From positions 1 through 64,000 of IMG/VR virus record IMGVR_UViG_3300024264_000015: 64,000 nt of DNA; one strand, written 5' to 3'. This document shows, in pieces, positions 30,930-63,999 of this stretch. Source of the stretch: a virus. The number at the start of each line of letters is the position of its first letter. The first letter of the stretch is position 1. The position numbers were made by a program, and so were the translations under genes. Below the pieces are notes generated by a model. It saw only the letters and a list, made by a program, of their open reading frames with translations. It did not search any database and was not told the DNA's origin.

Positions 30930-31178
30930 ATGGTAGACATTGAAAAATTAAAAAAGAAATTAGAGAGTAGTATAGTTTTGATAACTTTTGAATCTCTAAA
31001 AAGTGGAGAAATATACAATAGAGAGTACACTCTTTCTAAAAACTATTTACCTTTACCTAATCATATATCTAGACAGTCTGGAGATAGACTTATAGTATGG
31101 GATGTAGAGTTTCAGAAATGGGAAGACTTACTCCTTACGACAATACTAGAATGGAAAACCATGGTGGACATTGACTAA
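30930..31178 (+). CDS. hypothetical protein (WYL/SH3-like)
   Basis: VWDVEFQKWED. Confidence 0.6.
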   Translation: MVDIEKLKKKLESSIVLITFESLKSGEIYNREYTLSKNYLPLPNHISRQSGDRLIVWDVEFQKWEDLLLTTILEWKTMVDID

Positions 31179-44037: not shown

Positions 44038-45340
44038 ATTTTATATATTAGTAACTCATACTTTACACAAGGTTCAAAGACACTTTTCTTACTCAGGAAT
44101 ACAACCTAAGGAAGCTATGGTAGTTATAAATACTACTAATGATGTTTTCTATAAACAATGTAGCAACTGGTGTGAATCGCAAGGCATACCATGGATTCGT
44201 ACAGAATCTGATGGTACACCTGCGACTGGAAAGAATAGTGTCTTGGATTTGTTTTTAAAAAGTAAAGATGATTATATGGTAGCTGTAGATGGTGATGATT
44301 ATATCACTAAATATGGCTATGCTTATTATAAAAATGTTGTAAACCAAGATAACACCCCCGATAGTTTATGTCTATATAAACAACAATCCCAACTAATCAC
44401 CATTTTTGGTCAAAGAATATGGATTAATCTTATGGGACTCCCCACAGATTTAGATACTGAAATGCATATACGTAGAAGTCATTTAATGGGAGAAGTGTAC
44501 GCACACCATTTAAAAGATTATTATGAAGAAAAGTATGGAGACCTAGAACTATATGTAGAAGATTGTTTGAAACATACAAAAGAAAATTTATATTATGTCT
44601 ATAAGTATTATGAAAGATATAAAATATATGATAACGATTTTGCAGAATCTCATTGTAGACCTGTATTGTTTTCCAAAGCAGCAGCAAAAGAATGTCATTT
44701 TCCTAGTAATGTACCTGTAGGAGAAGATACTTTAGTATATTTACAACTTAAAAATGCACATTTTCAAGGAAGAATACATACTGAACTAGTAGATGAACTA
44801 AAAGAAAATATGACTTATCTTTATGACTGTATAAAAGCGGACGGAGACGATTTAGGAGCTATGCTAGGAATTACTCTTAATCAGACAGACTATACTTGGG
44901 TACGTTTAATAAATATAAAATTAAAAGAAATGGAACAAAAAGGAGAGTTACATGCTATTCCGCTACCTGTAAATAATTGTTTACCAAGTAAGTGGAAAAA
45001 AGATAACATAATACCTGCAAGACCCCAGTTTCCTCTTGATTTTAATTTAAAGAAATGGGATGAAAGATGGGAAGACAAACCCCAATACGATAAACCAAGT
45101 GATAAAGCTATGGAATTAATAGATAATATAAGAATGTGTGAGTATTATGCGTCTACGGAATCTGGAGTAGTATTGCAAATAATAGAACAACAAAAAGAAA
45201 ACAAAAAACAATTATTAGAAGTTTTAGGCCTAAGTCCTAATGCTATGGTCAAGTTTCCTAAAGGCTACTTTAAAAACTCTAGACCTTACTTTCACCACGC
45301 TACTCCTCAAGAAGTAGCACAACTTTATCCAAAATCATGA
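44021..45340 (+). CDS. GT-A-like protein
   Basis: ESDGTPATGKNSV, VDGDD (DxD), VGEDT. Confidence 0.5.
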   Translation: MQKNLRFYILVTHTLHKVQRHFSYSGIQPKEAMVVINTTNDVFYKQCSNWCESQGIPWIRTESDGTPATGKNSVLDLFLKSKDDYMVAVDGDDYITKYGYAYYKNVVNQDNTPDSLCLYKQQSQLITIFGQRIWINLMGLPTDLDTEMHIRRSHLMGEVYAHHLKDYYEEKYGDLELYVEDCLKHTKENLYYVYKYYERYKIYDNDFAESHCRPVLFSKAAAKECHFPSNVPVGEDTLVYLQLKNAHFQGRIHTELVDELKENMTYLYDCIKADGDDLGAMLGITLNQTDYTWVRLINIKLKEMEQKGELHAIPLPVNNCLPSKWKKDNIIPARPQFPLDFNLKKWDERWEDKPQYDKPSDKAMELIDNIRMCEYYASTESGVVLQIIEQQKENKKQLLEVLGLSPNAMVKFPKGYFKNSRPYFHHATPQEVAQLYPKS

Positions 45341-45966
45341 AAATCTTTATAGGTTATGAATCTGCATACCCACAAATGTTTGACGTCTGTGCAAAAAGCA
45401 TAAATCGTTACAATTCCAATCATGAAATCATACCACTCAAAAAATCGGAAATATCCGAATATACTCGTCCTTTTCAGAACGAGAGTACAGAGTTTGCCTT
45501 TACTCGTTTTCTAGTACCACAGCTCTGTGACTACGAAGGGGAAGCTTTATTCTGTGATGGAGATTTCTTATGGCTCTGTGACCCTGAAGAAGTTATGGAT
45601 TATTTTTCCGATGAACATACAGTTCATGTGGTAAAACATCCTAGTTTCCTCGTCAAACCTAAGAAAATGAAAAACAAGAAAAACCATGCTTATCCTAGAA
45701 AATACTGGTCAAGTCTTATGCTTTTCAATAATCCTAAGTGTAAAGAACTTACTTATGATTATGTAAACCAAGCCCCAGCGGGTGCATTGCATGAGTTACA
45801 TTGGGCAGATAGTATAGGGGAACTTCCTGCGCAGTATAATGCCATGGTAAATTATTACAAATTCAAGAGACCAAAAGCACTCCACTATACAGACGGCGGG
45901 CCTTGGTTAAATATAAACGAGTGTTCGGAGTACACAGCAAAATGGATGACACTTTACAAAAGTTAA
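45337..45966 (+). CDS. GT8-like glycosyltransferase (paralogue of 9987-10742)
   Basis: IFIGY, STEFAFTRFLVP, FCDGD, WSSLML, HYTDGGPW. Confidence 0.82.
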   Translation: MKIFIGYESAYPQMFDVCAKSINRYNSNHEIIPLKKSEISEYTRPFQNESTEFAFTRFLVPQLCDYEGEALFCDGDFLWLCDPEEVMDYFSDEHTVHVVKHPSFLVKPKKMKNKKNHAYPRKYWSSLMLFNNPKCKELTYDYVNQAPAGALHELHWADSIGELPAQYNAMVNYYKFKRPKALHYTDGGPWLNINECSEYTAKWMTLYKS

Positions 45967-46592
45967 CAGAAGATAAAAATATTATACTTGTGGGAAATTC
46001 AGTGGAAATGTTGGAGCATGAGTATGGGGAGTACATAGAAAAGTTTGATACAATTGTACGATTTGGAAATGGTATACCTGATAAACACCCTAAGAATATG
46101 GGCACTCGCACAGATATATGGATTACAGGGTGGCTTCGTATGATTAAACATAAACATTTTCCAACCGCGTATAAATTATTCAATCGTTGCAGAATACACT
46201 TGGATATAAAACCTAAAGAAATGAAACCTGAGTTTGAATATGAGACTATGTTCGATGATGACGAATTAAAAAATATTTATAAAATGGTAGGGGCAAAGAA
46301 TAATGTGAAGATGGGAAATAGACCGAGTGCAGGTTTCTTAGGTATATTATTTTTTCTTACTAAAACCAATCCTAAGTCAATTACTCTAATTGGCTTTGAC
46401 TTTTTCTCTAAAAAATTACCTTTTAAAAGTGGCAATGATTACCCTGCAAGTTGGCATCTACCACACAATTCACAAGAGGCTAGTCCGCATAATATTATGG
46501 AAAAACCACTTGTGCAAAAATGGGCAAAGGAAGGTAAGTTGAAATGGAAAATCTTATCTGACTTGAACGAAGAGTTCTTAGATTTTTCCTAG
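45942..46592 (+). CDS. GT29 (sialyltransferase)-like protein
   Basis: IILVGNS..YGEYIEKFDTIVRF..GTRTD (motif L-like); RPSAG..GFDF..H..E (S/VS-like). Confidence 0.65.
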   Translation: MDDTLQKLTEDKNIILVGNSVEMLEHEYGEYIEKFDTIVRFGNGIPDKHPKNMGTRTDIWITGWLRMIKHKHFPTAYKLFNRCRIHLDIKPKEMKPEFEYETMFDDDELKNIYKMVGAKNNVKMGNRPSAGFLGILFFLTKTNPKSITLIGFDFFSKKLPFKSGNDYPASWHLPHNSQEASPHNIMEKPLVQKWAKEGKLKWKILSDLNEEFLDFS

Positions 46593-47558
46593 TTTATATC
46601 CGACTTCAATTAATTTTCTTGATACTTGTTTCTGTTTATTTGATTTAAATAATAGAAGTTCGTTGAGTCTAGCATTTCTTAAATTTACAGGTATGTTCGG
46701 TATCTGTGCAGTCCACAAATCCCAAGGTATTCCTAATTGTACTCCTGCAGGTAGATACTCATATTTTTTAAGTAACCACTCTGGTTTTACATGGACACTA
46801 AATGCTTTTCTCATAATTACATTGTGATTAATAAAGTCTTTTGTATTTAGTGCTTCGTAAGTAAGAAGTTTATCATTTTTACCGTTTACATAAACTGGCA
46901 TTGCTTTTCCTCTGTAATGAAACTTCTCAAAGAAAGACTGATTCCAACTACCCATAACTCTTCTATCTATATGATGTGGATAGAGTACAGGATTGATTCT
47001 ATTAGTCTGACCTCTTGCAAATAGTAATTTTTCATCGAAAGTAACCATTTTATCCCAATTTATAATAAAGAACTGGGGGTCAACCATACCTTTACTTACA
47101 GTTTCTTTTCTACCTACATGCTCTTCTTCAAACATTTGACTTTTCCAACCTAAAATATCATAGTACTTTTTATAAGTAGGATGGTCTTTATAGACATGAT
47201 TATGGCTATATAAAACAAATTTATCATCAAAGTATTTATTATCAGGTAATTCGTTTTTCCAATTATTTCTTAAGAATATTCTTGCACCACCTGCGTACAT
47301 AACTCTTTTGTTTAGTCCGCCTTTATCTTTCCAATACTCTTTTAAGTATCTTATAGCTCTAGCTTGTTCTTCACCTTTCCAGAAACTTTGATATACTTTT
47401 ACGTTTTCTATATTACTTATTACCCACTCTACTACACTTTTATCCCAGTCATCTTCGTGAATAAATAAATGCAAGCGAAAGTCCTCGTCTTTCTCAATCA
47501 GAGAAGCAAGTGTAAATAAACTAAAATCTTTTATGTATGTATGTACTATCTCAATCAT
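46578..47558 (-). CDS. putative glycosyltransferase-like protein
   Basis: GT8-like N-terminus (FTLASL..LHLF) and FFIINWD; no clear DxD. Confidence 0.35.
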   Translation of the reverse strand: MIEIVHTYIKDFSLFTLASLIEKDEDFRLHLFIHEDDWDKSVVEWVISNIENVKVYQSFWKGEEQARAIRYLKEYWKDKGGLNKRVMYAGGARIFLRNNWKNELPDNKYFDDKFVLYSHNHVYKDHPTYKKYYDILGWKSQMFEEEHVGRKETVSKGMVDPQFFIINWDKMVTFDEKLLFARGQTNRINPVLYPHHIDRRVMGSWNQSFFEKFHYRGKAMPVYVNGKNDKLLTYEALNTKDFINHNVIMRKAFSVHVKPEWLLKKYEYLPAGVQLGIPWDLWTAQIPNIPVNLRNARLNELLLFKSNKQKQVSRKLIEVGYKLGKI

Positions 47559-48462
47559 CTTGTTTTTTATATTCCCAAAAATTATTTATAAACCTTTCAA
47601 GTCTTTCTTCAGCATCGTCATCAAAATCAAATATGATTCCTGAATTTTTTGCTGATAGAATCTTACGTATAGTATGCGAGGCTTTTGTCCCAGATACTGC
47701 ATGGTAAATGCTTTCGTATGTTAATAAATTCTTTTCTCTTTCTTTTTTAGTATGACTTATCATACCAAGTTTTTTGTTTAATAATAATGCTACTATGCCC
47801 ATTTCACTGTTTGGCATTGTAGCAACTTCTTTACAGTTGTATAAAATTTCATGCCCACTTTGTTTTTTATTTAATACTTTATCTGCTCCAAAATCTTTTT
47901 TAAATTTAGCCATATAAAGTGCATTAGTGATAGGATGTGGTTTTATTACATAACCTTGTTTTATGTATTCTCTCATTCTACCCCAATGTATAACTCTATC
48001 TTTACATATTAAATTACTACCTGGTGGAAAAATTACTTTATCATAATGTTCTTGTGTTTGTGCTAAAATGTATTTATCTTCTATACAATTTAGTATTTTT
48101 TCTATTCTTTCTTCGTCAATTTCTATATCTGAATTAGCAATAGATAGCATTAACTTATCGTTAATTTTTATGGAATTTGTTTTTACATAAATTCCTCTAC
48201 CTAAAAAATCTGTGTATAACCACTTTCGTATTGTAAACAATTCATTTGTGTTAAACCAAACGTCATATTCAAATCTAACACCTTCTCTCCACTCTGGTAT
48301 TACTCTTTGTTTGAACTTTAGTAATGCGTCTCTTTGATGGTCGGGTCTATAGCAAGAGCCTGATTTCATAAAGTGAGTAACCTTATCTCCAAGACTCTCA
48401 TTACTTGCCATCGGAACTAATTTATCTTTTTTGACTGGACTTTTATTTATTTTTAGTTCCAT
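47551..48462 (-). CDS. GT-B capsule-biosynthesis-like (KpsC/KpsS-like) protein
   Basis: VIKPHP and NSEMGIVALLLNK motifs. Confidence 0.5.
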   Translation of the reverse strand: MELKINKSPVKKDKLVPMASNESLGDKVTHFMKSGSCYRPDHQRDALLKFKQRVIPEWREGVRFEYDVWFNTNELFTIRKWLYTDFLGRGIYVKTNSIKINDKLMLSIANSDIEIDEERIEKILNCIEDKYILAQTQEHYDKVIFPPGSNLICKDRVIHWGRMREYIKQGYVIKPHPITNALYMAKFKKDFGADKVLNKKQSGHEILYNCKEVATMPNSEMGIVALLLNKKLGMISHTKKEREKNLLTYESIYHAVSGTKASHTIRKILSAKNSGIIFDFDDDAEERLERFINNFWEYKKQDD

Positions 48463-48601
48463 TCTTTAACTCAAATAATTGTGTTTCTATATTTTTTAAT
48501 CTATCTTCTTGTTCTACGATTGTGTCCATTAGTGCTACAACGATGCTTTCTAGTTTATCGTTGACATACTTGGGGGTTATATCTTTGTCCTTTAGTTTCA
48601 T
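48443..48601 (-). CDS. 52-aa coiled-coil peptide (not in ORF track)
   Basis: MKLKDKDITPKYVNDKLESIVVALMDTIVEQEDRLKNIETQLFELKNGTKNK; abuts the upstream stop. Confidence 0.7.
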   Translation of the reverse strand: MKLKDKDITPKYVNDKLESIVVALMDTIVEQEDRLKNIETQLFELKNGTKNK

Positions 48602-51600
48602 TTATTCTGTCCATGTTGAACCGTCCCAGTAACTTGCACTAAAGTCGCTTATACTTGCGACTTCCGTGTCAAAGATTGTACCCGCCTGAGACGCTGTTAT
48701 TCTTTCAAATACTGTGGTACTCGTATTAAATGTAGTTGTGGTAAGGTGGTCAGTATCTCTAGTAGTTTCTGTTACCTTACCTGTGGCAAATGTTGTGGTT
48801 GTTGTTTTGCCTGTTTCAAATTCTGTTGTTCTAGTAGTTTCAAAAGTAGTTGTTGTGTCATACGCTGTAGACTTAGATGTCGTTGTAGACCTATTTGTCT
48901 CAAATGTAGATACTGTACTTCTGCTTGATGCTGTATCTCTTGCAGTAAGTGTTGCTCTAGCAGTATTAAATGTACTTGTAGTTTCTCTACTAGATTGCGT
49001 AGCTCTAGTGGTTATTGTTCCTAAAGTTGTAGCATATACTGTTGTTGTATCTCTACTTGTAGTTGTTCCTCTAGCTGTATTGAACGTAGTAGTAGTTGCT
49101 CTAGAAGTTCCTGTTACTCTTTGTGAGCCTCTACTTGTTAAGTATGCTGTTTCATATGCAGTACTTCTTGATGTGTTTGTATTTCTAGTAGTTCCGAATG
49201 ATGTATTATCTACATACGCTGTTGTTCTTGAAGTTTCTGTTCCTCTGCTTGTATTTGTGCTTCTACTTGTATTTGTACTTCTGCTTGTTGTAAATACTGT
49301 ATTATCTACATATGCTGTTGTATAGTTTGTATTTACTAAGAATACAGTAGTGAAATTAGTACTATCTACGTATGCGGTTGTTCTTGTAGTATTCGTATTT
49401 CTTGTAGTTGCAAAACTTGTATTATCTACATAGGCTGTTGTTCTACTTGTTTCAGTAGTTCTAGAAGTGTTTGTTGCTTGTGTAGTTGTATATGCAGTTT
49501 CATTTGTAAATGATGTATTATCTACATATGCTGTTGTAAATGATGTATTATCTACATACGCTGTTGTTCTTGAAGTATTTGTGCTTCTTGTAGTTGAGAA
49601 TGAAGTATTATCTACATAAGCTGTTGTAAATGATGTATTATCTACATACGCGGTTGTTCTAGCTGTATTTGTACTTCTTGTAGTTGAGAATGAAGTATTA
49701 TCTACATATGCTGTTGAGAAACTTGTATTATCTACATATGCTGTTGTTCTAGCTGTATTTGTGTTTCTTGTAGTTGCAAATGCAGTGTTATCTACATATG
49801 CTGTTGTAAATGAAGTGTTATAACTTGTGTTGTTTGTAAATCCTGTATCTCTACTTGTGTTAGTGGCTTGTGTTGTATTATATGCTGTGCTATTTGTAAA
49901 CCCAGTATTTCTACTTGTATTCGTTGCTTGTGTTGTATTATATGAAGTAGAGTTTGTAAAGCCTGTATTTCTACTTGTATTTGTAGCCTGTGTAGTTGTT
50001 CTAGATGTATTCGTGTTTCTAGAAGTGTTTGTGTTTCTACTTGTATTTGTTGCTTGCGTAGTATTGTAAGCAGTATTTCTAGAAGTATTCGTGTTTCTAC
50101 TTGTATTCGTTGCTTGTGAAGTATTGTAAGCAGTATTAAATGAAGTATTATTTGCAAATCCTGTAGACCTAGTTGTATTATATGAAGTATTACGTGCACC
50201 AGTTGCTCTAGTTGTATTTACTTGTCTAAATGCTGAACTTGCAGAAGTACCTGTTCTTCTTTGATAAGTTCCAGAATATCCACTATTCTGACCACCACCC
50301 CAGCCGGAATAATAGTTTCCTGGGCTAGACCAGTATACTGTAGTAATTCTATTGTAGTAATAAGTCAGGTATGAAGTAGAGTCTGTAGTTGACCTTGTAG
50401 TTCCATAAGAAGTATTCCTACTAGTATTTGTACCTCTAATTGTACCTCTACTTGTACCAAATGATGTGTTATCTACATAAGCTGTACTGTTTGTAAATCC
50501 TGTACCTCTAGTTGTTCCGAATGAAGTGTTGTCTACATATGCTGTACTATTTGTAAATGAAGTAGAGTTTGTAAATGAAGTACTAAAAGATGTGTTGTCT
50601 ACATATGCAGTGCCTCTAGTTGTATTTGTATTTCTTGTTGTACCAAATGAAGTGTTATCTACGTATGCAGTACTTCTACTTGTGTTTGTATTTCTACTTG
50701 TTCCAAAAGAGGTGTTATCTACATAAGCAGTAGACCTACTTGTATTTGTACTTCTTGTTGTGCTTCTTGTTGTACTTCTCGATGTATTTGTTGCTTGAGT
50801 AGTTGTATACGAAGTAGAGTTTGTAAATCCTGTAGACCTAGAAGTATTTGTAGATTGTGTAGTTGTTCTAGATGTATTTGTTGCTTGAGTAGTTGTATAC
50901 GAAGTATTATTAGTAAATCCTGTACTTCTACTTGTATTCGTAGACTGTGTAGTTGTTCTACTCGTATTAGTAGATTGTGTAGTATCATAACTTGTATTGT
51001 TACTAAATCCTGTACTTCTACTTGTGTTAGTAGACTGTGTAGTTGTTCTACTTGTGTTTGTACTTCTAGCTGTATTTGTATTTCTTGTTGTACCAAATGA
51101 AGTGTTGTCTACATATGCTGTTGCTGTTCCATATACAGTAGTTCTAGAAGTGTTTGTTGCTTGTGTAGTTGTATACGAAGTAGAGTTTGTAAATCCTGTG
51201 TCTCTTGATGTATTTGTATTTCTACTTGTAGTTACACTTGTATTAGAAGCTCTAGAAGTTGTTCTACTCGTATTAGTAGATTGTGTAGTATCATAACTTG
51301 TATTATTCGTAAATCCTGTATTATCTACATAAGCTGTTGATGTATTATATACAGTAGTTCTAGAAGTGTTTGTTGCTTGTGTAGTTGTATACGCTGTCTG
51401 GTTTGTAAATCCTGTAGACCTAGATGTACCAATTACAGTATCAAAACTTGTAACATATGTTGTAGTTGTATTGTAGTTGGTAGTAGTGCTACGTGCGGTA
51501 TTAAAGGTCGTAGTAGTTGTATACGTAGTAGTAGTATCGTGACTTGTTAAAAAAGTGGTTGTAGTTGTATACGCTGTTGTAGTATTAAATACTGTTGTAG

Positions 51601-52018
51601 TACCTTGTGTAGTTGTAAAGGTAGTTGTAGTATTGAATGTTGTAGTAGTTGTAAATAGAGTTGTAGTTGTAGTGGTTGTATTATATGTTGTAGTCGTATT
51701 GTGAGTAGTGCTTCTACTTGTATTCGTAGCTCTATCCGTATCAAATGTTGTTACTCTATCTGTGTTATATGTTGTTGTTGTGCCACGAGTTGTATCAAAT
51801 CCAGTAGTCGTATTAAACGCTGTTACCTGTACACCTGATATGGTAGTTCTAGCTGTTGCTGTATTTCTTGAAGTTTCGTGAACGACAGAAAATGGCCCTT
51901 CTAGAGCACCACTATCGTTTACGTATACTTCATTAACCCTTCGTATTGTGCCATTGTCGTTGATGGCGAGAAAGGATATCTGACGTAATGTACCATTGTC
52001 ATTAACATATATTGCCAT
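48602..52018 (-). CDS. Thr-rich self-complementary beta-hairpin fibre protein
   Basis: 1138 aa of 4/6-residue Thr repeats; antiparallel complementarity i+j=1155; unique central insert; in the tail operon. Confidence 0.8.
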   Translation of the reverse strand: MAIYVNDNGTLRQISFLAINDNGTIRRVNEVYVNDSGALEGPFSVVHETSRNTATARTTISGVQVTAFNTTTGFDTTRGTTTTYNTDRVTTFDTDRATNTSRSTTHNTTTTYNTTTTTTTLFTTTTTFNTTTTFTTTQGTTTVFNTTTAYTTTTTFLTSHDTTTTYTTTTTFNTARSTTTNYNTTTTYVTSFDTVIGTSRSTGFTNQTAYTTTQATNTSRTTVYNTSTAYVDNTGFTNNTSYDTTQSTNTSRTTSRASNTSVTTSRNTNTSRDTGFTNSTSYTTTQATNTSRTTVYGTATAYVDNTSFGTTRNTNTARSTNTSRTTTQSTNTSRSTGFSNNTSYDTTQSTNTSRTTTQSTNTSRSTGFTNNTSYTTTQATNTSRTTTQSTNTSRSTGFTNSTSYTTTQATNTSRSTTRSTTRSTNTSRSTAYVDNTSFGTSRNTNTSRSTAYVDNTSFGTTRNTNTTRGTAYVDNTSFSTSFTNSTSFTNSTAYVDNTSFGTTRGTGFTNSTAYVDNTSFGTSRGTIRGTNTSRNTSYGTTRSTTDSTSYLTYYYNRITTVYWSSPGNYYSGWGGGQNSGYSGTYQRRTGTSASSAFRQVNTTRATGARNTSYNTTRSTGFANNTSFNTAYNTSQATNTSRNTNTSRNTAYNTTQATNTSRNTNTSRNTNTSRTTTQATNTSRNTGFTNSTSYNTTQATNTSRNTGFTNSTAYNTTQATNTSRDTGFTNNTSYNTSFTTAYVDNTAFATTRNTNTARTTAYVDNTSFSTAYVDNTSFSTTRSTNTARTTAYVDNTSFTTAYVDNTSFSTTRSTNTSRTTAYVDNTSFTTAYVDNTSFTNETAYTTTQATNTSRTTETSRTTAYVDNTSFATTRNTNTTRTTAYVDSTNFTTVFLVNTNYTTAYVDNTVFTTSRSTNTSRSTNTSRGTETSRTTAYVDNTSFGTTRNTNTSRSTAYETAYLTSRGSQRVTGTSRATTTTFNTARGTTTSRDTTTVYATTLGTITTRATQSSRETTSTFNTARATLTARDTASSRSTVSTFETNRSTTTSKSTAYDTTTTFETTRTTEFETGKTTTTTFATGKVTETTRDTDHLTTTTFNTSTTVFERITASQAGTIFDTEVASISDFSASYWDGSTWTE

Positions 52019-52021
52019 TTT

Positions 52022-52243
52022 TTAACTCGAATAGACAAACCATACATGACCGTCACTCGTTCCTGAAGTATTTGTTGGTGCTGTTGTTGTTATTGTAAAA
52101 GGTAGTCTAGCTTTTGCGATAGTACCAGAGCCAATCTTTCCTGATGCGACCGCTCCTTGAAAGTTTCTGCTAGAGTCAACTACCTGTGTTCCATCAATCT
52201 TGATACCTGCGTCTTCGATGTTAAAATCTAATTTTTGTCCCAT
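52022..52243 (-). CDS. small fibre adaptor-like protein
   Basis: C-terminal TTAP..SDGHVWF motif typical of tail accessory proteins. Confidence 0.55.
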   Translation of the reverse strand: MGQKLDFNIEDAGIKIDGTQVVDSSRNFQGAVASGKIGSGTIAKARLPFTITTTAPTNTSGTSDGHVWFVYSS

Positions 52244-52244
52244 T

Positions 52245-55200
52245 TTATACCTCTATTGTTGTTCTTATGAACTTGTATGCCATTGTGTCTGCACTTGCTG
52301 GCGTTACTCTTAATCTTACATTACCTGCACTTACATCTGCGTCAAATGTTGCTTGTGCTCCATTGTCAAAGATAGACGCGTACTGTGTTAAGTATACATC
52401 TGACCCATCATGGAATAGGAAAATTTCTAATGCTTGATAATCTGAATCTGTTGTGTTTTTAATCTGTACTACATATTTAGCAGTTCTAAATACAGTAGTT
52501 GCAAAACTATCTAGTGTAAATACTGTCGTTGCAGATGAACTTCCTGTACCAACATCCATACCAGCTACTTCGTCTATGTGAAGTTTTTGTGGTGGATTAG
52601 TGTCTTGAATACCTATGCTACCTGCTACATTTACTTTATTAGATGTGCTTCCACCAAACCCTAAATCTCCTCCAAATGTAATACTTCCTGTCATTGTTTT
52701 ACCACCAAGTGCTGCACTTGATAATTGTGTAGTTGTTATAGAGTTATTTGCAATCTCACTTGACCCAATAGCGTTTGCTGCTATTTTACTGGCGTCTATA
52801 GCATTGTCTTGAATTTTTGCAGTTGTTACTGAATTACCAGCTAATTGTGCTGTATTAATTAGACCATCTTGTATAAAGCTAACGCTATTTATTGCGTTTG
52901 CAGCTAGTTGTGTTGCTGTGATAGAAGCGTTTGGTATTTTTGCAGAAGTAATAGCATTATCAGCTATCTCTACTGCTGTTATTGTACCATTTGGTATTTT
53001 AGCACCTGATACAGAGTTATCAGCTAATTTACCTACTGTTACTGCTCCTGTGCCTATTTGTTCTTCTGTTACTGCACCTGAAGCTATTTTGTTTACTGTT
53101 ACGGAGTTAGAACCAAGTTTTGCTTCTGTTACAGAACCAGTTGATAAATGAATAGCATCTATACTTCCTGTTACTAACTCTGCTGAATCAACGGAGTTAG
53201 AAGCAATATGTCTGGCTAGTACAGCGTCTGTTGCTAGTTTAGTAGCATCTATTGAGTTGTCAGCCATATTGCCTGTAGCAATAGTATTGGCTGCTATTTT
53301 TCCTGTTGTGACCGAGGCGTCTGCTAGATGCTCGTTATCTATACTTCCTGCAACATAATGTTCTGAATTTATAACATCATCTGCTATTTTTGTGCCGTCT
53401 ACTATGTCTGCGGCTAAATGTATTCTGTCTATACTGCCTGATACGAGTTCTGAACTGTCTACAGAGTTTGCTGCTAAGTGTAATGCTCCTACAGAGCCAG
53501 TAATTAATTCTGAAGCTCCGACAGCATTTGCTGCTATCTTACTAGCGTCTACAGCATTTGTTCCTATTTTTGCACTTATTACTGCACCAGAAGCTAACTG
53601 TGTAGAGCCTACTGCTCCTCCAGCTATTTCTGCAGCTCCTACAGCATTGTCTGCTATATGAGAAGCATCAATAGACCCTGTTGATATTTTATTAGCATTT
53701 ATTGCGTTATTTGCAATGTTTGGCCCTGTAATAGTTTCTGAGCCTACTTTGGCACCAGTGACTGCGTCATCTGCTAAGTGTATAGTATCAATGCTACCTG
53801 TCACTAATTCTGCTGAATCTACTGAGTTTGCTGCTAGTTCACTTGCTGTTATGCTTCCTGCGACTATCTTACTTGCATTTACTGTGTTGTTTGCAATCGC
53901 ACTTGCTGTTCCTGTTAAGTTACCTGTAACGTTGCCTTCTACATTTGCTACTATAGTACCTGTTGTAATTGTTAGGTCACCTGTTGAAGCACCTGTAAAT
54001 GTGCCTGTACCTACTTTAAATTTATCTTCACTTTCATCAAATCCTATAAATGCGTTATTTGAATCTCCTCTTTCAATTACTATACCAGCGTCTCCATTTG
54101 GAGACCCTGTTGTACCTGTACCTAATTCTAATAATGGGTCAGATATTGTAGTTGTAGTAGAGTTAACAGTCGTTGTTGTACCGTTTACTGTTAAGTTTCC
54201 TGAAAGTGTAACGTTTCCTGTGAATGTTTGACCACCTAATGCATCTGATTTAAGTTCAGAAGCTGATACTGCATTTGCTGATATTTCACTGTTACCAACT
54301 GCATTTGCGGCTATCTTTGCTCCTGTTACAGCATTGCCTGCTATATGTATTGCATCAATAGAGCCAGAGATTAATTCTGCGCTGTCTACTGAATTGTCTG
54401 CTAGTTCGCTTGAACCTACAGCACCTGCATTGATGTGTCTTGCTAGTATTTGGTCTGTTGCAATTTTTGCTGAAGTAACTTGGTTAGCTGCAATATGTAT
54501 TGTGTCAATACTACCAGTTGCTATTTCTGAACTATCTATTGAGTTTTCAGCTATATGTGTTACATCTATAACACCTGTACCTATTTTTGCAGCAGTGATT
54601 GAATTATCCCCTAAATGTATAGTATCTATACTACCTGTTACTAACTCTGCTGAATCTACTGAGTTTGCTCCTAAGTGGTCTGCTGTTATTGTTGCTGTAG
54701 GTATGTGTCTTGCAACGATTGAATTTTGTGCTATCTTAGTTCCGTCTACTGCGTTATCTGCAATATTGGCTAAGGCTATTGTATTGGCGGCTATTTTTGC
54801 GCCTGTTACTTGTAAGTTTCCTATATGTGCAGTATCTATACTACCATCTACTAAATGTTCTGAATCTATTGAGTCATCTGCAATTTTTGAGCCACTTACT
54901 GCATCCGCTCCTATTTTTCCACTAGTTACTGCTCCTGTACCTATTTTTGCTTCTGTTACTTGTGAAGCTCCAATATGTATAGTATCAATGCTACCTGATA
55001 CAAGTTCAGAACTATCAATAGAGTTTGCAGCTATTTGTGTAGAACCTACACTATTAATTCCTACATTGGAACTATTTACTATTGCTGTCCAACCCATGTT
55101 AGCGTGTGCTGAACATTGGTAATACAATATTTGAGGAGTAGTACTCGTAACGGCAATTTCTGTGTATGCACCTGAACTTCCTGCTGTTCCGTTATTTGTA

Positions 55201-56120
55201 ACTCCTGTAGTATAAGCCGTTGTTTTATTGGCTTCTAAATAAAATCTGAAAGGATGGTTAGCGTTTGACGAGTCATCTTGCTTAAATTTATAGGTATTCC
55301 CAGGTTGTAATACTAATACTGGAGACTCTTTGCTTTCGAACTTATATCCTAGAGTGCTACCATTTCCGTAGTCACCATGTGCGGAAGTTTTTGTAACAAC
55401 CGTTACATCATATTCATAAGTTCCAAATTCTTGAATTGATTTTGCGTTCTTGTGTATTTCACTTGAAGTAACATTATCAGCAACTATTTTTGCTGTACTC
55501 ACTGAATTTGTGCTTAGTTTTGCACCTGTTACTTGTAAAGCTCCAATATGTATAGTGTCAATACTACCTGTTATTAGTTCGCTAGAGTCTACTGAGTTTG
55601 CGCCAAGTTGTGTTGAAGTAATACTCCCATCAGCAATATGATGAGCAGTAACTGCATTTTGGGCAATCCTCGCTGTTGTTATTTGATTTTCAGCAATCTT
55701 GTCTGTAGTTACAGCATTATCAGCTATCTGTAATGTTTCGATTGCGTTTGTTGCTATCTCTGAAGTGTCTACTGAGTTTGCAGCTATCTCGTTGGAAGTA
55801 ACAGCGTTAGCAGCTATTTTGGCTGTTGTGACTTGTCCTGTTCCAAGGTGAATAGTATCAATAGAACCACTTACTAACTCACTTGAATCTACTGAGTTTG
55901 CAGATATACCTGCGTTTGTTACTGAGTTATCTCCTACACCTGTTACCGCACTAGCTTGTAGCTGTGCAGCTCCAACAGAGTTTGTAGCAAGTTCTGAGGT
56001 GGTAATAGCATTAACTGCTATTTCAGAAGCACCAATAGCATTTGCAGCTATCTTTGATGCTACTACACTATTGTTTCCTATTGAATCTTGTTGTACTAAA
56101 AATTTACCGATTAGTGGCAT
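52245..56120 (-). CDS. long repeat tail-fibre protein with an inserted cupredoxin-like domain
   Basis: 5/10-residue repeats (NAVTxAKIA, GSIDTIHL, NSVDSAEL); HPF..YYQCSAHANMG insert. Confidence 0.75.
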   Translation of the reverse strand: MPLIGKFLVQQDSIGNNSVVASKIAANAIGASEIAVNAITTSELATNSVGAAQLQASAVTGVGDNSVTNAGISANSVDSSELVSGSIDTIHLGTGQVTTAKIAANAVTSNEIAANSVDTSEIATNAIETLQIADNAVTTDKIAENQITTARIAQNAVTAHHIADGSITSTQLGANSVDSSELITGSIDTIHIGALQVTGAKLSTNSVSTAKIVADNVTSSEIHKNAKSIQEFGTYEYDVTVVTKTSAHGDYGNGSTLGYKFESKESPVLVLQPGNTYKFKQDDSSNANHPFRFYLEANKTTAYTTGVTNNGTAGSSGAYTEIAVTSTTPQILYYQCSAHANMGWTAIVNSSNVGINSVGSTQIAANSIDSSELVSGSIDTIHIGASQVTEAKIGTGAVTSGKIGADAVSGSKIADDSIDSEHLVDGSIDTAHIGNLQVTGAKIAANTIALANIADNAVDGTKIAQNSIVARHIPTATITADHLGANSVDSAELVTGSIDTIHLGDNSITAAKIGTGVIDVTHIAENSIDSSEIATGSIDTIHIAANQVTSAKIATDQILARHINAGAVGSSELADNSVDSAELISGSIDAIHIAGNAVTGAKIAANAVGNSEISANAVSASELKSDALGGQTFTGNVTLSGNLTVNGTTTTVNSTTTTISDPLLELGTGTTGSPNGDAGIVIERGDSNNAFIGFDESEDKFKVGTGTFTGASTGDLTITTGTIVANVEGNVTGNLTGTASAIANNTVNASKIVAGSITASELAANSVDSAELVTGSIDTIHLADDAVTGAKVGSETITGPNIANNAINANKISTGSIDASHIADNAVGAAEIAGGAVGSTQLASGAVISAKIGTNAVDASKIAANAVGASELITGSVGALHLAANSVDSSELVSGSIDRIHLAADIVDGTKIADDVINSEHYVAGSIDNEHLADASVTTGKIAANTIATGNMADNSIDATKLATDAVLARHIASNSVDSAELVTGSIDAIHLSTGSVTEAKLGSNSVTVNKIASGAVTEEQIGTGAVTVGKLADNSVSGAKIPNGTITAVEIADNAITSAKIPNASITATQLAANAINSVSFIQDGLINTAQLAGNSVTTAKIQDNAIDASKIAANAIGSSEIANNSITTTQLSSAALGGKTMTGSITFGGDLGFGGSTSNKVNVAGSIGIQDTNPPQKLHIDEVAGMDVGTGSSSATTVFTLDSFATTVFRTAKYVVQIKNTTDSDYQALEIFLFHDGSDVYLTQYASIFDNGAQATFDADVSAGNVRLRVTPASADTMAYKFIRTTIEV

Positions 56121-59318: not shown

Positions 59319-59734
59319 TGTCCGTACCTCTTTACATTTACTGTTGTTCCACTATGTTGTTTATAATGGAGTTTTTTAAATTTTATTACGTATTGCCCTG
59401 GTTCTTGTATTGTTAATGTTAGGGTAGTATCTGACATAACTCCCATAGATTCGCCATCTTTAAATACTTCTGTACCTACTGGAACTCCAGTTACATTAAC
59501 TACTTCGTCTATTGCAGGTGTAGTTGTAGAAAAAGTAAAATCAAATATTGATTTCTCTACTAAAGCAGTTGCGTCACTATTTAAATGAAAATCACCATCG
59601 GGTAAATTTTCAGATTCTAAGGCAACGTGACTGTTTCCTAAATCTGATTGTGCACTTTTTATTGCATCATTTATTAGTCCTGTAGTAGACCACACTATTT
59701 CTTTATTACTATTATAAAATATATTATATATCAT
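59315..59734 (-). CDS. tail-associated hypothetical protein
   Basis: ATGA overlap start at 59734. Confidence 0.65.
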   Translation of the reverse strand: MIYNIFYNSNKEIVWSTTGLINDAIKSAQSDLGNSHVALESENLPDGDFHLNSDATALVEKSIFDFTFSTTTPAIDEVVNVTGVPVGTEVFKDGESMGVMSDTTLTLTIQEPGQYVIKFKKLHYKQHSGTTVNVKRYGQ

Positions 59735-60351
59735 AAACTTTCTCCGTTTAAAAAATTCTCTGCTGTAAATATTATACAACTCCAAAAATAACGAGCATTA
59801 GTATTAACAGAACCAGCTGACATAAACCCAGTACCTGCATTTGGGTTAAAATCATCATCATGATACTGGCCCACGCTGTTGTGTAATACTATAGTGTTAT
59901 TTGTTGTGCTACTTACTTGTAATCCGCTATACGCCCCCATACCTGGAAATACTACTTCATCTCCATCTTCGTCTCCTTCTTCAGTACGCTCACTCAAATC
60001 AATATTATAACTAAAAGGAGGGTAAGTTTCAGTTGCTACTCCACTGCTGATTTGATTAAAAGTACACCATCTGACTGCAAAACAAGGTACATAACCTAAA
60101 TTATGTGTTATTGTAGTTGTATGTTGATTATAAGTAACATTATTATAAGTAAAACTAATTTGTGTTCCGTTATATGTTTGAACATTTGGGACTAATATTC
60201 CTTGTGAAGCAGAATGTACAATAAGACTTTCTGCAGCTCTTGAATCAAATCCTAAAGGTTGATTAGAATTTGTTACATCTTGTCCTGCCCTAGAAACAAA
60301 TAGACCATAATCTGTACTTCCTCTTTTTCCTAATAATACTCTATTTGCCAT
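59731..60351 (-). CDS. tail protein, MANR-paralogue 3
   Basis: MANRVLLG..YGLFVSRAGQDVT. Confidence 0.65.
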   Translation of the reverse strand: MANRVLLGKRGSTDYGLFVSRAGQDVTNSNQPLGFDSRAAESLIVHSASQGILVPNVQTYNGTQISFTYNNVTYNQHTTTITHNLGYVPCFAVRWCTFNQISSGVATETYPPFSYNIDLSERTEEGDEDGDEVVFPGMGAYSGLQVSSTTNNTIVLHNSVGQYHDDDFNPNAGTGFMSAGSVNTNARYFWSCIIFTAENFLNGESL

Positions 60352-60833
60352 TAGAATATCGCCAAGTTTGAGTATCTAGGTACTACAAATGATTTTACAT
60401 TTACAGATAGAGTTCCTGTATTTTCTATGCTTATTGTTTCTAAAGACTCACTTACACTGAAATCATACGATAGTGCACCAGATGCAGAACTATATGTTGT
60501 TGGGGCTAAAAGTCCGAAACCTATAAAACCAAAATCAATTCCAAAATCTATACTACTTAAATCTAAAGTTGCTGTACTTCCTGCACTAACAGTAGTGGTG
60601 ACTGTAGTAGTGGTTCCTCCTCCTACTACAGGTATAGGAGCAAGTTGGTACATAGATATTATTCTTCCTAAACTAGTTCCTACCCCGTTGTCAGTATTAA
60701 ATATTAATTCATCTGCCGTACAAGTGGTTACATCTTTCCCAGGTCTTGATATGTATAATCCATACCCAGGACTTCCAGCACTATGTCCGTGATTGCTATT
60801 TATATTTTTTCCTAATATTAATCTATTTGCCAT
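60351..60833 (-). CDS. tail protein, MANR-paralogue 2
   Basis: MANRLILG..YGLYISRPGKDVT. Confidence 0.65.
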   Translation of the reverse strand: MANRLILGKNINSNHGHSAGSPGYGLYISRPGKDVTTCTADELIFNTDNGVGTSLGRIISMYQLAPIPVVGGGTTTTVTTTVSAGSTATLDLSSIDFGIDFGFIGFGLLAPTTYSSASGALSYDFSVSESLETISIENTGTLSVNVKSFVVPRYSNLAIF

Positions 60834-60835
60834 AA

Positions 60836-61738
60836 TTATCCAAAGTAAGTGCTTGTCATATATCCATAAGCACAGGGTATTCTTAATACAAAGAAACTTG
60901 CATTAATCATTTCTGTTTGTTGTGGTATCTCTGCATTATTATAAGTATAATTTCTTCCAATAGAAACAGGAGCTCCTACGTCAGTACCATTTGCACCTTG
61001 AGAAGTTGGACTATCTGCAGCAGCTTCTACTGGGTACATTGTACTAGAAGTTGTTTTAAATAAACTTAGTCTATTTACAGATTCATATATTTCTTCTTCT
61101 TCCTCTTCACCTTCGTAGCCTCCTCCGTGTTGTTCTGATAAAACTATTAAAGGTACATACCCTAAACTCGGCTTTATTGTCCCCGAACCAGTTAGAAAAT
61201 TTACTCCAGTAGAAGATAGCTCTGGATAATCATAAGTTCCTCCAGCTATTCCTATAAATGTTTCTAGAGAATTGGATGCAGGATAACTTATTACCATATC
61301 AGAGGTTGTTTTCATAAGTGTTAATCTATGGTCGACACTAGAAAGATTGCTTGTAAGAGCTGTTACTCCTGATATACTTGCAGCATTAATATCTGCTTTC
61401 ATATTGTCTACAGTAGTAAAAGTGACACCAGACGATGTTGTTGTTGTGCTAAGAGTTACTGTTGTTCCATCTATTATTATTTTCTTTCCTGTTAAATTTA
61501 CTGGGTTAGTAAATGCTGTACCAAATCTATTGACTGAGCCTCTTACATATGCTTCTTGGTCTGCTGAGTAGTCTACAAAATTTAATCCTGCACCTCCTGC
61601 ATATATTTGTCCTGTTCTATTTTTTGTGGAGTCAAAAATCATATCTTTATCTGCTCCAGTAGTAACGTCAGTACCTGCTCTAGATACTTTTAATCCATAG
61701 GTGCTTCCTATGTCTCCTAATAATACTCTATTTGCCAT
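60836..61738 (-). CDS. tail protein, MANR-paralogue 1
   Basis: MANRVLLG..YGLKVSRAGTDVT. Confidence 0.65.
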   Translation of the reverse strand: MANRVLLGDIGSTYGLKVSRAGTDVTTGADKDMIFDSTKNRTGQIYAGGAGLNFVDYSADQEAYVRGSVNRFGTAFTNPVNLTGKKIIIDGTTVTLSTTTTSSGVTFTTVDNMKADINAASISGVTALTSNLSSVDHRLTLMKTTSDMVISYPASNSLETFIGIAGGTYDYPELSSTGVNFLTGSGTIKPSLGYVPLIVLSEQHGGGYEGEEEEEEIYESVNRLSLFKTTSSTMYPVEAAADSPTSQGANGTDVGAPVSIGRNYTYNNAEIPQQTEMINASFFVLRIPCAYGYMTSTYFG

Positions 61739-63999
61739 TAGTCTGTAATTAAAATCCTCCCATTTGTTCCGTCTATTGTTATATTTCCTACTACTATGCT
61801 TCCTCCAGAAGCAACACTCATACTTGAAGTTACGTTTCCTGATGAATTTATAGCAGTGCCATTGTGTGTGGCTTTTCGTACACTTGCTACATTTATACCA
61901 CTTGAATCTGATGTTATTTGAGCATCCGCTGCTGTTAGTGTTATATCATTATTTGAGCCATTATTTAATCTTAAAAGCCCTGTACTTGGTCTGCTAAAAC
62001 TAATTTGGTCATTTTTTAATGCGCTTGGAGCTCCTGCGCTTTGTATAACAGTAGTTCCTTTCTTAATTCTAACTGTAGTTCCACTATAGTCAATATCTAA
62101 ATCACTGTTTCTTACGTCAACGTCACTCAATACAGTACCATTAGCTTGTTTAAGGTTAGTACCTGCTATAGCTCCTACTGTAGCTCCACTAGCTGGTAGT
62201 GTACTAAATACTTTACCACTTCCTGATATATCTGAAGATACAATACTAGCATTCTTTAAAGCATCAGGAGCTCCTGCGCTTTGTATAACAGTAGTTCCTT
62301 TCTTAATTCTAACTGTAGTTCCACTATAGTCAATATCTAAATCACTGTTTCTTACGTCAACGTCACTCAATACAGTACCATTAGCTTGTTTAAGGTTAGT
62401 ACCTGCTATAGCTCCTACTGTAGCTCCACTAGCTGGTAGCGTACTAAATACTTTACCACTTCCTGATAAATTGGTAGATATTATTTTATCATTTGAAAGT
62501 ACTACACTATTAAATGCGGAACTTGCTCCTGTTATTTTTCCATTACTATCTATACTAATACCGTCATTTTTTACAGCACCTTGTGAAGCTCCGTCAATAA
62601 ATAAATTATTACCTGTTACTGCTGTTTCATTTGCGTTGTTTGATACTCCTGATAAATTTATTAAACTTTGGGTTAAACCTCCAGTACTACCATTTGTTAT
62701 TGTTGTACTTCCAAATTTTATTTTTAAAGAAGTTCCATCTTGGAAAAGATTTAATTGTTCGTTACTTATTTTGTCAGGTATATTACTCTCAGAAAATTGT
62801 TTTACGTCATCTACATTAGTAAGTCCAACGTCTGCTTTTCCAAGTCCAACATCAGTATTTGCTCCTGTATTTGTAAGTCTAATTTGTCCGTTTACTTTAC
62901 TTAAAACGATTTCGTCATTTCTGTATTTATCAGTAATTACAGCTTCTTTATAAGTTATAGAATTATCGGGTCTAAATTTAATTTTATTATTAGTATCATC
63001 TATAACAATATCTATGTTATCTGGGTCAAAGATTTCCCACTTACCTCCTGCTGGTCTAACAGGGCCTGAAGTAATTGTTAAGCCAGTTGTACTGTCAAAA
63101 GTAGCCTCTTTTACTGTAAAAGTTGCATGGGCAAAAGGAACTACTCCTAAAGTCTGTGACCATCCGCTTGTAAGTCCTGATAAAGTTTTTGTTGTAAAAT
63201 TAAAGCCTGTTGCAGTTGGAGCGCTTGGTAAAGCACCATATGCCCAAGCATCGTAAAATACTTGTACTGTTTCTGTTCTTGGTTGTTGTGCTTCTGACTG
63301 TATTGCTGGTGTTGACCATTCGCCTGTTGCAACAACATCTGTTGCTGTGTTTGAGGTTGCAGTTGCAGAACAACTCCATAAATATTGAGCTGTACCTGTC
63401 GGTACTTCATTTAATGACCATCCATCTAAGTCTGCTGTGTTTGTTACTGAAGAACTAGCGAATGTATATGTTACATTTCCATTTGGTACTGCCGGTGCAG
63501 AACTTCCACTAGTACTTCTTTTATAAAGTGTTAGAGTTGCTGTATTATTACCATCTGTACCATTTGAACCTTCTATTCTTGTAGGTTCTTGCCATGTAGT
63601 TTTGAATCCATAATTTCCGCTTACTATACTAAACTGTGTTGTTCCTTTGGATACCCATATTGGATTACTACCTGAAGGTACATCTCCTATATCATTATAC
63701 CAGTTAGTTGGTATAACAGGAAAGTTTGTTATAGCAGGCGCATTTGGTTGAGTTGCACCTCTTTGAAATATAAACTCTACCTGATTTTGTGGACTCTTAG
63801 AATTACCTGGTGCAGACCAGGATAAACTTCCAGAAGTATTAGCTGTTGAACTTTCTGTAGCAAGAGCTTCTGATGTCCAATAAATTGCCCCCTCTGCATC
63901 TTCGGGTATTGCTTGTTGCCATCCTGAAGATATACTTGCTATGACTCCATTACCAAAATAATATACTCCAGAACTAGGAGCTGTTGGTAGTGTAAATGA
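61738..63999 (-). CDS. C-terminal part of a large tail (central fibre/tip-like) protein; start beyond window
   Basis: Same frame reads as S/T/G-rich protein near the window end (SFTLPTAPSSGVYYFG...) and around 62370-62550; ends ITIDGTNGRILITD; ORF track caught only an internal TTG. Confidence 0.75.
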   Translation of the reverse strand, partial: SFTLPTAPSSGVYYFGNGVIASISSGWQQAIPEDAEGAIYWTSEALATESSTANTSGSLSWSAPGNSKSPQNQVEFIFQRGATQPNAPAITNFPVIPTNWYNDIGDVPSGSNPIWVSKGTTQFSIVSGNYGFKTTWQEPTRIEGSNGTDGNNTATLTLYKRSTSGSSAPAVPNGNVTYTFASSSVTNTADLDGWSLNEVPTGTAQYLWSCSATATSNTATDVVATGEWSTPAIQSEAQQPRTETVQVFYDAWAYGALPSAPTATGFNFTTKTLSGLTSGWSQTLGVVPFAHATFTVKEATFDSTTGLTITSGPVRPAGGKWEIFDPDNIDIVIDDTNNKIKFRPDNSITYKEAVITDKYRNDEIVLSKVNGQIRLTNTGANTDVGLGKADVGLTNVDDVKQFSESNIPDKISNEQLNLFQDGTSLKIKFGSTTITNGSTGGLTQSLINLSGVSNNANETAVTGNNLFIDGASQGAVKNDGISIDSNGKITGASSAFNSVVLSNDKIISTNLSGSGKVFSTLPASGATVGAIAGTNLKQANGTVLSDVDVRNSDLDIDYSGTTVRIKKGTTVIQSAGAPDALKNASIVSSDISGSGKVFSTLPASGATVGAIAGTNLKQANGTVLSDVDVRNSDLDIDYSGTTVRIKKGTTVIQSAGAPSALKNDQISFSRPSTGLLRLNNGSNNDITLTAADAQITSDSSGINVASVRKATHNGTAINSSGNVTSSMSVASGGSIVVGNITIDGTNGRILITD
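62027..62468. repeat. 202-bp direct repeat, period 240 bp, 1 mismatch
   Basis: 62027-62228 equals 62267-62468 except 62200 t vs 62440 c. Confidence 0.92.

Follow-up and report, generated by a model that had tools for sequence, protein, structure and literature searches.

The fibre gene and its product

The stretch of viral DNA analysed here (64,000 nucleotides, hereafter the window) corresponds to positions 1 to 64,000 of the IMG/VR virus record IMGVR_UViG_3300024264_000015 and carries, on its minus strand, a gene for a threonine-rich protein of 1138 amino acids whose N-terminal half, read forward, is complementary to its C-terminal half, read backward. The pattern of this protein, here called the fibre protein, and that of its homologues suggest that the chain folds back on itself as a very long antiparallel β-hairpin and forms a fibre of a phage tail.

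The composition of the fibre protein is dominated by Thr (35%), followed by Ser (12%), Asn (11%), Arg (7%) and by Tyr and Phe (5% each). Cys is absent and Pro occurs only twice, the arms being free of both, and His is found at just four positions (47, 106, 160 and 1091), never in the form H-x-H. Between an N-terminal and a C-terminal module lie two arms separated by a central insert (Table 1). The 90-nt tandem arrays of the N and of the C arm stand opposite each other when residues are paired so that their positions add up to 1155 (1155-412=743; 1155-320=835), so that these arrays agree in period and copy number; the 60-nt tandem arrays of both arms are likewise opposed. On the other strand of the gene, open reading frames (ORFs) of up to 203 amino acids are present (window 48714-49325, plus strand, and others). 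These antisense ORFs are not genes and represent a by-product of the ACN/AAY-rich codon usage.

Table 1. Positions in the window of the fibre gene, of its parts and of the adjacent genes.
Feature	Position	Strand	Basis or remark
Self-complementary Thr-rich fibre protein, whole gene	48602..52018	-	ORF list and translation, 1138 aa
N-terminal module, residues 1-50	51869..52018	-	Three xYVNDNGTLRxIxx copies; presumed attachment or base
N arm, residues 51-546, strand 1 of the predicted ribbon	50381..51868	-	Pairs with residues 1104-609 at i+j=1155
Central insert, residues 547-608, predicted distal tip	50195..50380	-	Y/W/G/S-rich, without complementarity
C arm, residues 609-1104, strand 2 of the predicted ribbon, antiparallel	48707..50194	-	Pairing at i+j=1155
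C-terminal module, residues 1105-1138 and stop codon (ERITASQAGTIFDTEV...SYWDGSTWTE)	48602..48706	-	Conserved in all homologues
N-arm tandem array, 90 nt x 3.1, residues ~320-412	50782..51061	-	TRF
C-arm tandem array, 90 nt x 3.5, residues ~733-837	49509..49821	-	TRF; partner of the N-arm array
Upstream neighbour, 1291-aa tail fibre protein	52245..56120	-	phrog_892 tail fiber, E 8e-125; syntenic in related loci
Two downstream co-directional genes, 303 aa and 326 aa	46578..48462	-	phrog_26179, function unknown

Mirror complementarity of the two arms

The complementarity was measured with a register score, i.e. the number of positions at which F, Y or W faces R, Q or K, computed for every sum S=i+j. 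Among all the registers scanned a single peak was found at i+j=1155, where 91 of the 96 anchor-anchor pairs are complementary; the next two, 1161 and 1149, score 48 and 47, against a median of 9 for all registers. Permuting the identity of the anchors with their spacing kept (2000 trials) gave a best-register maximum of 46.7 (standard deviation, SD, 4.7; highest 65), and shuffling the C arm in blocks of 10 residues gave a maximum over registers of 30.6 (SD 2.2, highest 41). The fibre protein thus has a z of 10.1, about 10 SD above the permutations, with one clear peak. In the control scan z was about 0 for four other proteins of the same phage. Of five unrelated repeat proteins, all but one behaved likewise; the exception, P0002, is a perfect tandem repeat and reached 5.4, but its top two registers tie at 27. 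The complementary pairs run from R51/F1104 to R542/Y613, D546/R609 lying one step further inward, and the gapless core of the hairpin alignment (N66-544 : C1089-611) comprises 479 rungs with 89 complementary anchors. The mirror complementarity of the fibre protein is, on this evidence, confirmed as real. A ribbon of this core would be 160 nm long, a value that is arithmetic (479 x 3.3 Å) and presumes a straight ribbon.

The pattern had been pointed out in an earlier note on this DNA, produced by a model from the letters alone. The ten residue pairs that it quoted at i+j=1155 are all correct, as are its list of exceptions (I/Y, F/L, V/F, H/K, H/Y and T/F) and its block pairings (YVDNTSF opposite QxTNTSR, FTNxTSY opposite RxTNTSR), and the single peak that it expected at 1155 against shuffled controls was obtained (91/96, next 48, permutation maximum 65). 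It had also stated that the DNA is not an inverted repeat. In fact, nothing beyond trivial inverted repeats of 14-28 nt was detected in the fibre gene, whose coding strand is A-rich along its entire length; for these two reasons a nucleic-acid palindrome was rejected as the origin of the mirror pattern.

Two faces and their pairing rules

In the N arm, 92 anchors fall on one parity (even positions) and 1 on the other over the 479 rungs, and the spacing between anchors in the arms is solely 4 or 6. The anchor face is made of T (52%), R, F, Y, D and Q, and the opposite one of T, S, N, A, G and V, with not a single aromatic, Arg or Lys residue. This unbroken alternation, which contains neither Pro nor a Gly-turn, has the look of a continuous β-strand and not of a solenoid or a disordered mucin. 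In the fibre protein the pairs are mostly R:Y (42), R:F (29) and Q:F (16), F:F, Y:Y, F:Y and R:R pairs are absent, and Q is never opposite Y. Moreover, each of the 18 Asp residues on the anchor face has an Arg one rung off on the opposite strand. The same rules are kept in nine divergent homologues, in which FR, YR and FQ pairs are found, QY pairs are nearly absent and homotypic ones are missing altogether. The order in which the aromatic residue lies on the N or on the C arm is aperiodic in the fibre protein, and therefore a single register is defined.

The conservation of the two faces was compared over the 135 rungs nearest to the base, where the family is well aligned. Column entropy is 0.34-0.41 bits on the anchor face, whose Thr residues are 97% conserved, and 1.05-1.14 bits on the small-residue face. 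Since the anchor face is the one of low entropy, the Thr ladder together with the aromatic:Arg pairs appears to be the constrained element, and the small-residue face behaves as though it were exposed. All the 87 N-x-S/T motifs of the protein lie on this variable face. Both a free ribbon and a pair of ribbons packed through their anchor faces would fit such a pattern.

Relatives and mirrored changes in length

Relatives were collected from IMG/VR with back-translated patterns (40 loci) and with a family alignment (208 loci), and 40 unique full-length homologues of 762-1621 amino acids were extracted. In all 40 the best register is S=L+15, L+16 or L+17, L being the length of the protein, and complementary anchors reach 130 of 132 in the best homologue; it follows that arm length varies more than twofold, the two arms staying equal. 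Indels are mirrored, as the earlier note had proposed to check. Between the fibre protein and the homologue L009, a shift of +22 at ~108 is matched by one of +22 at ~1023, and a shift of +22 at ~162 by one of +22 at ~983; L015 and L010 differ by mirrored indels of 21:20 and 20:20, and L035 and L031 by one of 10:10. The barcodes, i.e. the order of aromatic residues along the arms, diverge strongly among homologues while staying complementary. The compensatory exchanges between F/Y and R that had been anticipated were found in part, with clean double flips in the well-aligned base-proximal region at the column pairs 150/1005 and 166/989. At 3.3 Å per rung, straight ribbons of the family would measure ~125-235 nm, and less if they twist or coil.

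A separate feature was noticed in four of the longer homologues (L010, L015, L022 and L025), in which the register steps by +1 for every ~21 residues of the N arm, five or six times running; for example, residues 434-541 of L015 face residues 1108-1007, with a unit of 21 in the N arm and of 20 in the C arm. These steps look like periodic β-bulges, which would bend or twist the ribbon.

Termini, tip and polarity

All the homologues show high conservation of the first ~50 and of the last 35-40 residues. The centre, in contrast, is hypervariable in both length and sequence, ranging from a turn of 2-3 residues to about 70 amino acids or more. In L012 the centre of symmetry is Q449-S-E-G-F453, with complementary pairs reaching the turn; L031 and L035 have a turn at S470|G471 and L009 a G-N turn, in both cases with pairing up to the turn. 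The fibre protein itself has at its centre an insert of 62 residues rich in Y, W, G and S. The presence of a Gly-containing turn at the exact centre of symmetry, together with the hypervariable loop, favours a closed intramolecular hairpin whose turn would be a free and fast-evolving tip, and this tip loop is the likely place of contact with the host.

The hairpin register would place the C-terminal module beside the N-terminal one. Scanned alone, the latter matches through residues 3-45 the positions 5-47 of the 190 positions of the phrog_13729 profile (E 4.8e-6), a match that is best read as a common N-terminal module and not as family membership. The phrog_13729 proteins (160-210 amino acids) share the triple xYVNDNGTLRxIxE repeat at their N-terminus, but they go on into a small globular domain instead of a Thr-rich hairpin, and only the first ~47 profile positions match. 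The N-terminal triple repeat may be a portable attachment module with its three repeats in one chain. In the form xYVNDNGTLRExxE, this triple motif stands at the head of many such unrelated phage proteins of 160-210 amino acids (P0022, P0032, P0033, P0035, P0036, P0042 and P0045).

The predicted hairpin fibre and its alternatives

The reading preferred here, to which we assign a probability of about 0.72, is that of a fibre made by a single chain, closed intramolecularly as an antiparallel β-hairpin in which the base holds both termini and the loop forms the tip. According to this proposal, residues ~51-546 and 1104-609 would zip antiparallel into one uninterrupted two-stranded β-ribbon of ~480-495 rungs. 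One face of the ribbon would display a near-invariant Thr-Thr ladder with a heterotypic pair (F:R, Y:R or F:Q) every 4 or 6 residues, and the other would carry small polar residues (T/S/N/A/G/V) free to vary. Thr would provide β propensity, and stability would come from the heterotypic pairs through cation-π and amide-π contacts and from the Asp-Arg diagonal. The aperiodic aromatic order would act as a barcode fixing one register, and the exclusion of homotypic pairs, joined to this aperiodicity, would therefore confer register specificity and amount to negative design against slipped or parallel in-register self-association. The conserved N-terminal triple repeat and the C-terminal module, side by side, would form the proximal and presumably virion-attached end, and the hypervariable central loop would be the distal tip, likely the site at which the host receptor is bound. 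The fibre would be a monomer or a small bundle, and its length would evolve through duplications and deletions of units, obligatorily mirrored in both arms. Register, homologues and parity give strong support to what the earlier note had claimed in this respect, namely a very long antiparallel pairing of the arms, selection at the protein level and both termini at one end.

A different quaternary arrangement would be a homotrimer, in which three hairpins would join their six strands into an antiparallel needle or tube resembling the tip of T4 gp37, as the earlier note had also envisaged. Phage fibres are usually trimers, and this habit speaks for such an assembly. Tail fibres are described as trimeric in the searched text of a tail-fibre atlas (PMC12143355). 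Registers shifted by 6 also keep complementary anchors (48/54 at S=1161, 47/52 at S=1149) and could serve staggered contacts between chains; these peaks, however, arise automatically from 7-mers with both anchors of one class. The protein contains no HxH metal motifs, the small-residue face that would line the tube is the variable one (1.05-1.14 against 0.34-0.41 bits), and the conserved F/Y/R face seems, from its geometry, too bulky for the interior of a six-stranded tube; furthermore, three N-terminal repeats in one chain would suit a monomer on a threefold site. The gp37-like trimeric needle was thus left without support, and a homotrimer of this kind is considered unlikely. Pairing in trans, with the N arm of one chain bound to the C arm of another in a domain-swapped dimer, an open polymer or a network, would by logic satisfy a code of constant i+j equally well, but it appears quite improbable, since several homologues pair up to a Gly-containing turn of 2-3 residues at the centre of symmetry, a centre of 2 to >70 residues suits a free tip and not a junction in the middle of a fibre, closure in cis should be entropically favoured for identical contacts, and the two ends of a dimer would be alike, an odd property in a virion appendage.

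The mirror pattern would have no structural meaning if the protein were a mucin-like surface protein rich in Thr, Ser and Asn, possibly glycosylated, and disordered or solenoid-like. The 35% of Thr, the 87 N-x-S/T motifs, the very low confidence of the structure predictors and the adjacency of glycosyltransferase-like genes (GT29 with 28.1 bits, above its cutoff of 23, and weak indications of GT8 and Capsule_synth) could be taken in its favour. However, it can explain neither a unique register ~10 SD above permutations, nor the maintenance of that register across large changes of length in 40 proteins, nor the unbroken two-residue parity with near absence of Pro and 97% conservation of Thr on the anchor face, and we give it hardly any credence. 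Glycosylation could in any case coexist with a hairpin. Among known folds, a β-solenoid or a TxT repeat of the antifreeze or ice-nucleation type was rejected, as the parity is unbroken over 479 residues, Pro and regular turns are missing and the signal is at constant i+j and not i-j. A mucin-like disordered S/T-rich region, usually Pro-rich, was discarded in view of 2 Pro in 1138 amino acids, strict parity and register, and 97% Thr conservation.

Some observations weigh against the single-chain hairpin. It is inseparable from a domain-swapped antiparallel dimer by sequence alone, and neither face has a conventional hydrophobic core, so that a free ribbon may or may not be stable. Unit indels in one arm only, which the earlier note had named as evidence to the contrary, occur in two sequences, L024 (30 amino acids in one arm only, compared with L023) and L021 (40 amino acids against 20, compared with L022). 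Each of them is 99.9-100% identical to its fully paired sibling, and they represent either an assembly collapse of the repeat or very recent slippage variants. Repeat copy numbers were taken from metagenome assemblies, and short-read contigs break within the arrays; the Logan contigs, which match the window exactly in its unique parts, stop within the repeats and speak neither for nor against the copy numbers. Finally, AlphaFold2 returned no confident model for residues 470-685 from a single sequence (mean predicted local distance difference test, pLDDT, 38.7), and only scattered local strands for the full length with a 17-sequence alignment (mean pLDDT 29.5). With the ESMFold2 complex predictor, the interaction prediction score from aligned errors (ipSAE) between N1-110 and C1045-1138 was 0.01. 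The outputs of both programs count neither for nor against the ribbon.

Comparison with known systems

The receptor-binding tip of the long tail fibre of phage T4, formed by gp37, reportedly has a structure with a 'needle' domain, determined by Bartual et al. in 2010. An aromatic:Arg register code is, to our knowledge, not described for this structure. The needle measures about 150 x 25 Å (PMC3004832). It can be considered the nearest system in kind, given that the chain goes out and folds back, with antiparallel strands along the axis and a turn as the receptor-binding tip, an arrangement which for the fibre protein is read from its sequence. It is, however, ten times shorter (about 15 nm against about 160 nm), and it is an obligate trimer stapled by iron that His residues coordinate through HxH motifs, which the fibre protein does not have; there is no similarity of sequence or profile between the two.

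The nearest systems in logic would be the arms of SMC and Rad50 and the stalk of antigen I/II. SMC, Rad50 and MukB have α-helical heptad coiled-coil arms about 50 nm long. As in the fold proposed here, their chain turns back on itself at a hinge or tip, its two terminal parts come together as the head, and the arms must stay equal in length, an indel in one going with an indel in the other; but the arms are helical heptads, and the fibre protein has a two-residue periodicity of β type, 35% Thr and no heptads. In the stalk of streptococcal antigen I/II, longer than 50 nm, the α-helix of the A-region pairs with the polyproline helix of the P-region. Here too two distant and different repeat regions of one chain pair as a stalk with a distal binding domain; the pairing, however, is between an α-helix and a polyproline II helix, the protein is a bacterial adhesin and it follows no binary residue code. 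Single-layer β-sheets are known from OspA and its engineered extensions, and cross-strand aromatic-cation pairs from designed β-hairpins. These share with the predicted ribbon a β structure that lacks a hydrophobic core and owes its stability to Thr, with its high β propensity, and to side-chain pairs across the strands, but they comprise from a few to tens of residues, against 400-700 rungs, and are not natural fibres.

If the ribbon is real, it would represent a new fibrous-protein architecture, with hundreds of consecutive β-rungs from one chain and a register set by heterotypic cross-strand pairs instead of a hydrophobic core or trimerisation, and the longest known β-hairpins would be extended by about an order of magnitude. 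The 40 and more natural variants, with their mirrored indels and flips, would then be material for learning the rules of cross-strand pairing, and an example of how the length of a repeat protein changes under a two-sided constraint. Such a design may also explain how abundant marine phages can make host-capture fibres of great length with little expenditure of protein. As a family these proteins are common (208 IMG/VR loci, and seawater runs of at least 12 studies). The architecture would be new in kind, a view that rests on sequence statistics and comparative evidence. A bolder proposal, which we hold to be somewhat less than an even bet, is that of a natural 'protein duplex', a free-standing two-stranded β-ribbon of 125-235 nm with a binary pairing code reminiscent of nucleic acids, serving as the ultralight fishing-line fibre of widespread marine siphophages. 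It would have a reach of ~1.6 Å per residue, several-fold above that of trimeric fibres, and a pairing code directly reusable for programmable protein nanomaterials.

Database, literature and structure searches

The full fibre protein has no match in Pfam, PHROG or PDB, and no relative of the arms was found there. A homologue search with the full protein returned none, low-complexity word matches having swamped the candidates, and tblastn against GenBank phages gave no relative. A HMMER search among 1.84 billion representatives recovered only N- and C-terminal fragments besides repeat proteins (P0002, P0012, P0017 and others) that were inspected and rejected as spurious. In the ESM Atlas only unnamed viral clusters, with no model, were obtained for the fibre protein, and PDB sequence searches with the fibre protein, the two downstream neighbours and a phrog_13729 protein yielded nothing useful. 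Both AlphaFold2 and the ESMFold2 complex predictor fail on this protein, which thereby exposes a blind spot of structure prediction and is useful in this respect.

Full-text searching of the literature found no description of a comparable fibre; the 'Tentaclins' encountered there were judged irrelevant. On single-layer sheets and cross-strand aromatic-cation pairs it yielded just general reviews and papers on peptides. An atlas of tail fibres distinguishes 16 classes, among which, in the text searched, there is no hairpin or antiparallel ribbon (PMC12143355).

Genome context

The window lies within one contig of 90,319 bp that clearly belongs to a tailed phage. On the plus strand are genes for a ribonucleotide reductase, for a helicase and for a DNA polymerase that shares 43% identity with its counterparts in T5-like phages. 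The minus strand carries a siphovirus structural module with terminase, portal, protease/capsid, major tail, a 1247-aa tape measure, minor tail proteins, a 2475-aa protein and the 1291-aa tail fibre, directly followed by the fibre gene. The latter therefore occupies the 3' end of the siphovirus structural module, which is the context of the tail-fibre class. The genes for the 303-aa and 326-aa proteins stand behind the fibre gene in all the related loci whose sequence extends there, and the related loci are syntenic wherever the locus reaches; because the synteny holds throughout, these loci represent one phage lineage and bring no independent functional evidence. The phage is known from marine metagenomes only, the stretch 46000-53000 having been found in seawater and marine metagenomes of at least 12 studies.

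Some genes near the fibre gene resemble glycosyltransferases. A 216-aa product (45942-46592, plus strand) matches Pfam Glyco_transf_29, the sialyltransferase family, with 28.1 bits against a cutoff of 23, and a 209-aa product (45337-45966, plus strand) has GT8 and Caps_synth matches below the cutoff. For the 303-aa protein (47551-48462, minus strand) the look-alikes in the ESM Atlas include a cluster with 14% Capsule_synth members, a weak lead. Glycosylation of the fibre by the products of these flanking genes is possible. Genes for sugar-nucleotide biosynthesis were not found at 30-41 kb, a stretch that holds replication/repair and metabolic genes only; an asparagine synthase-like protein with a glutamine amidotransferase domain (Pfam Asn_synthase, 108 bits) is encoded at 31178-32692 on the plus strand. 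The gene for the 2475-aa protein of the tail module occupies 61738-63999 and continues beyond the window (61738-69165 of the contig, minus strand), and it is followed by three small paralogues (59731-61738) whose products start with MANRVLLGK or MANRLILGK.

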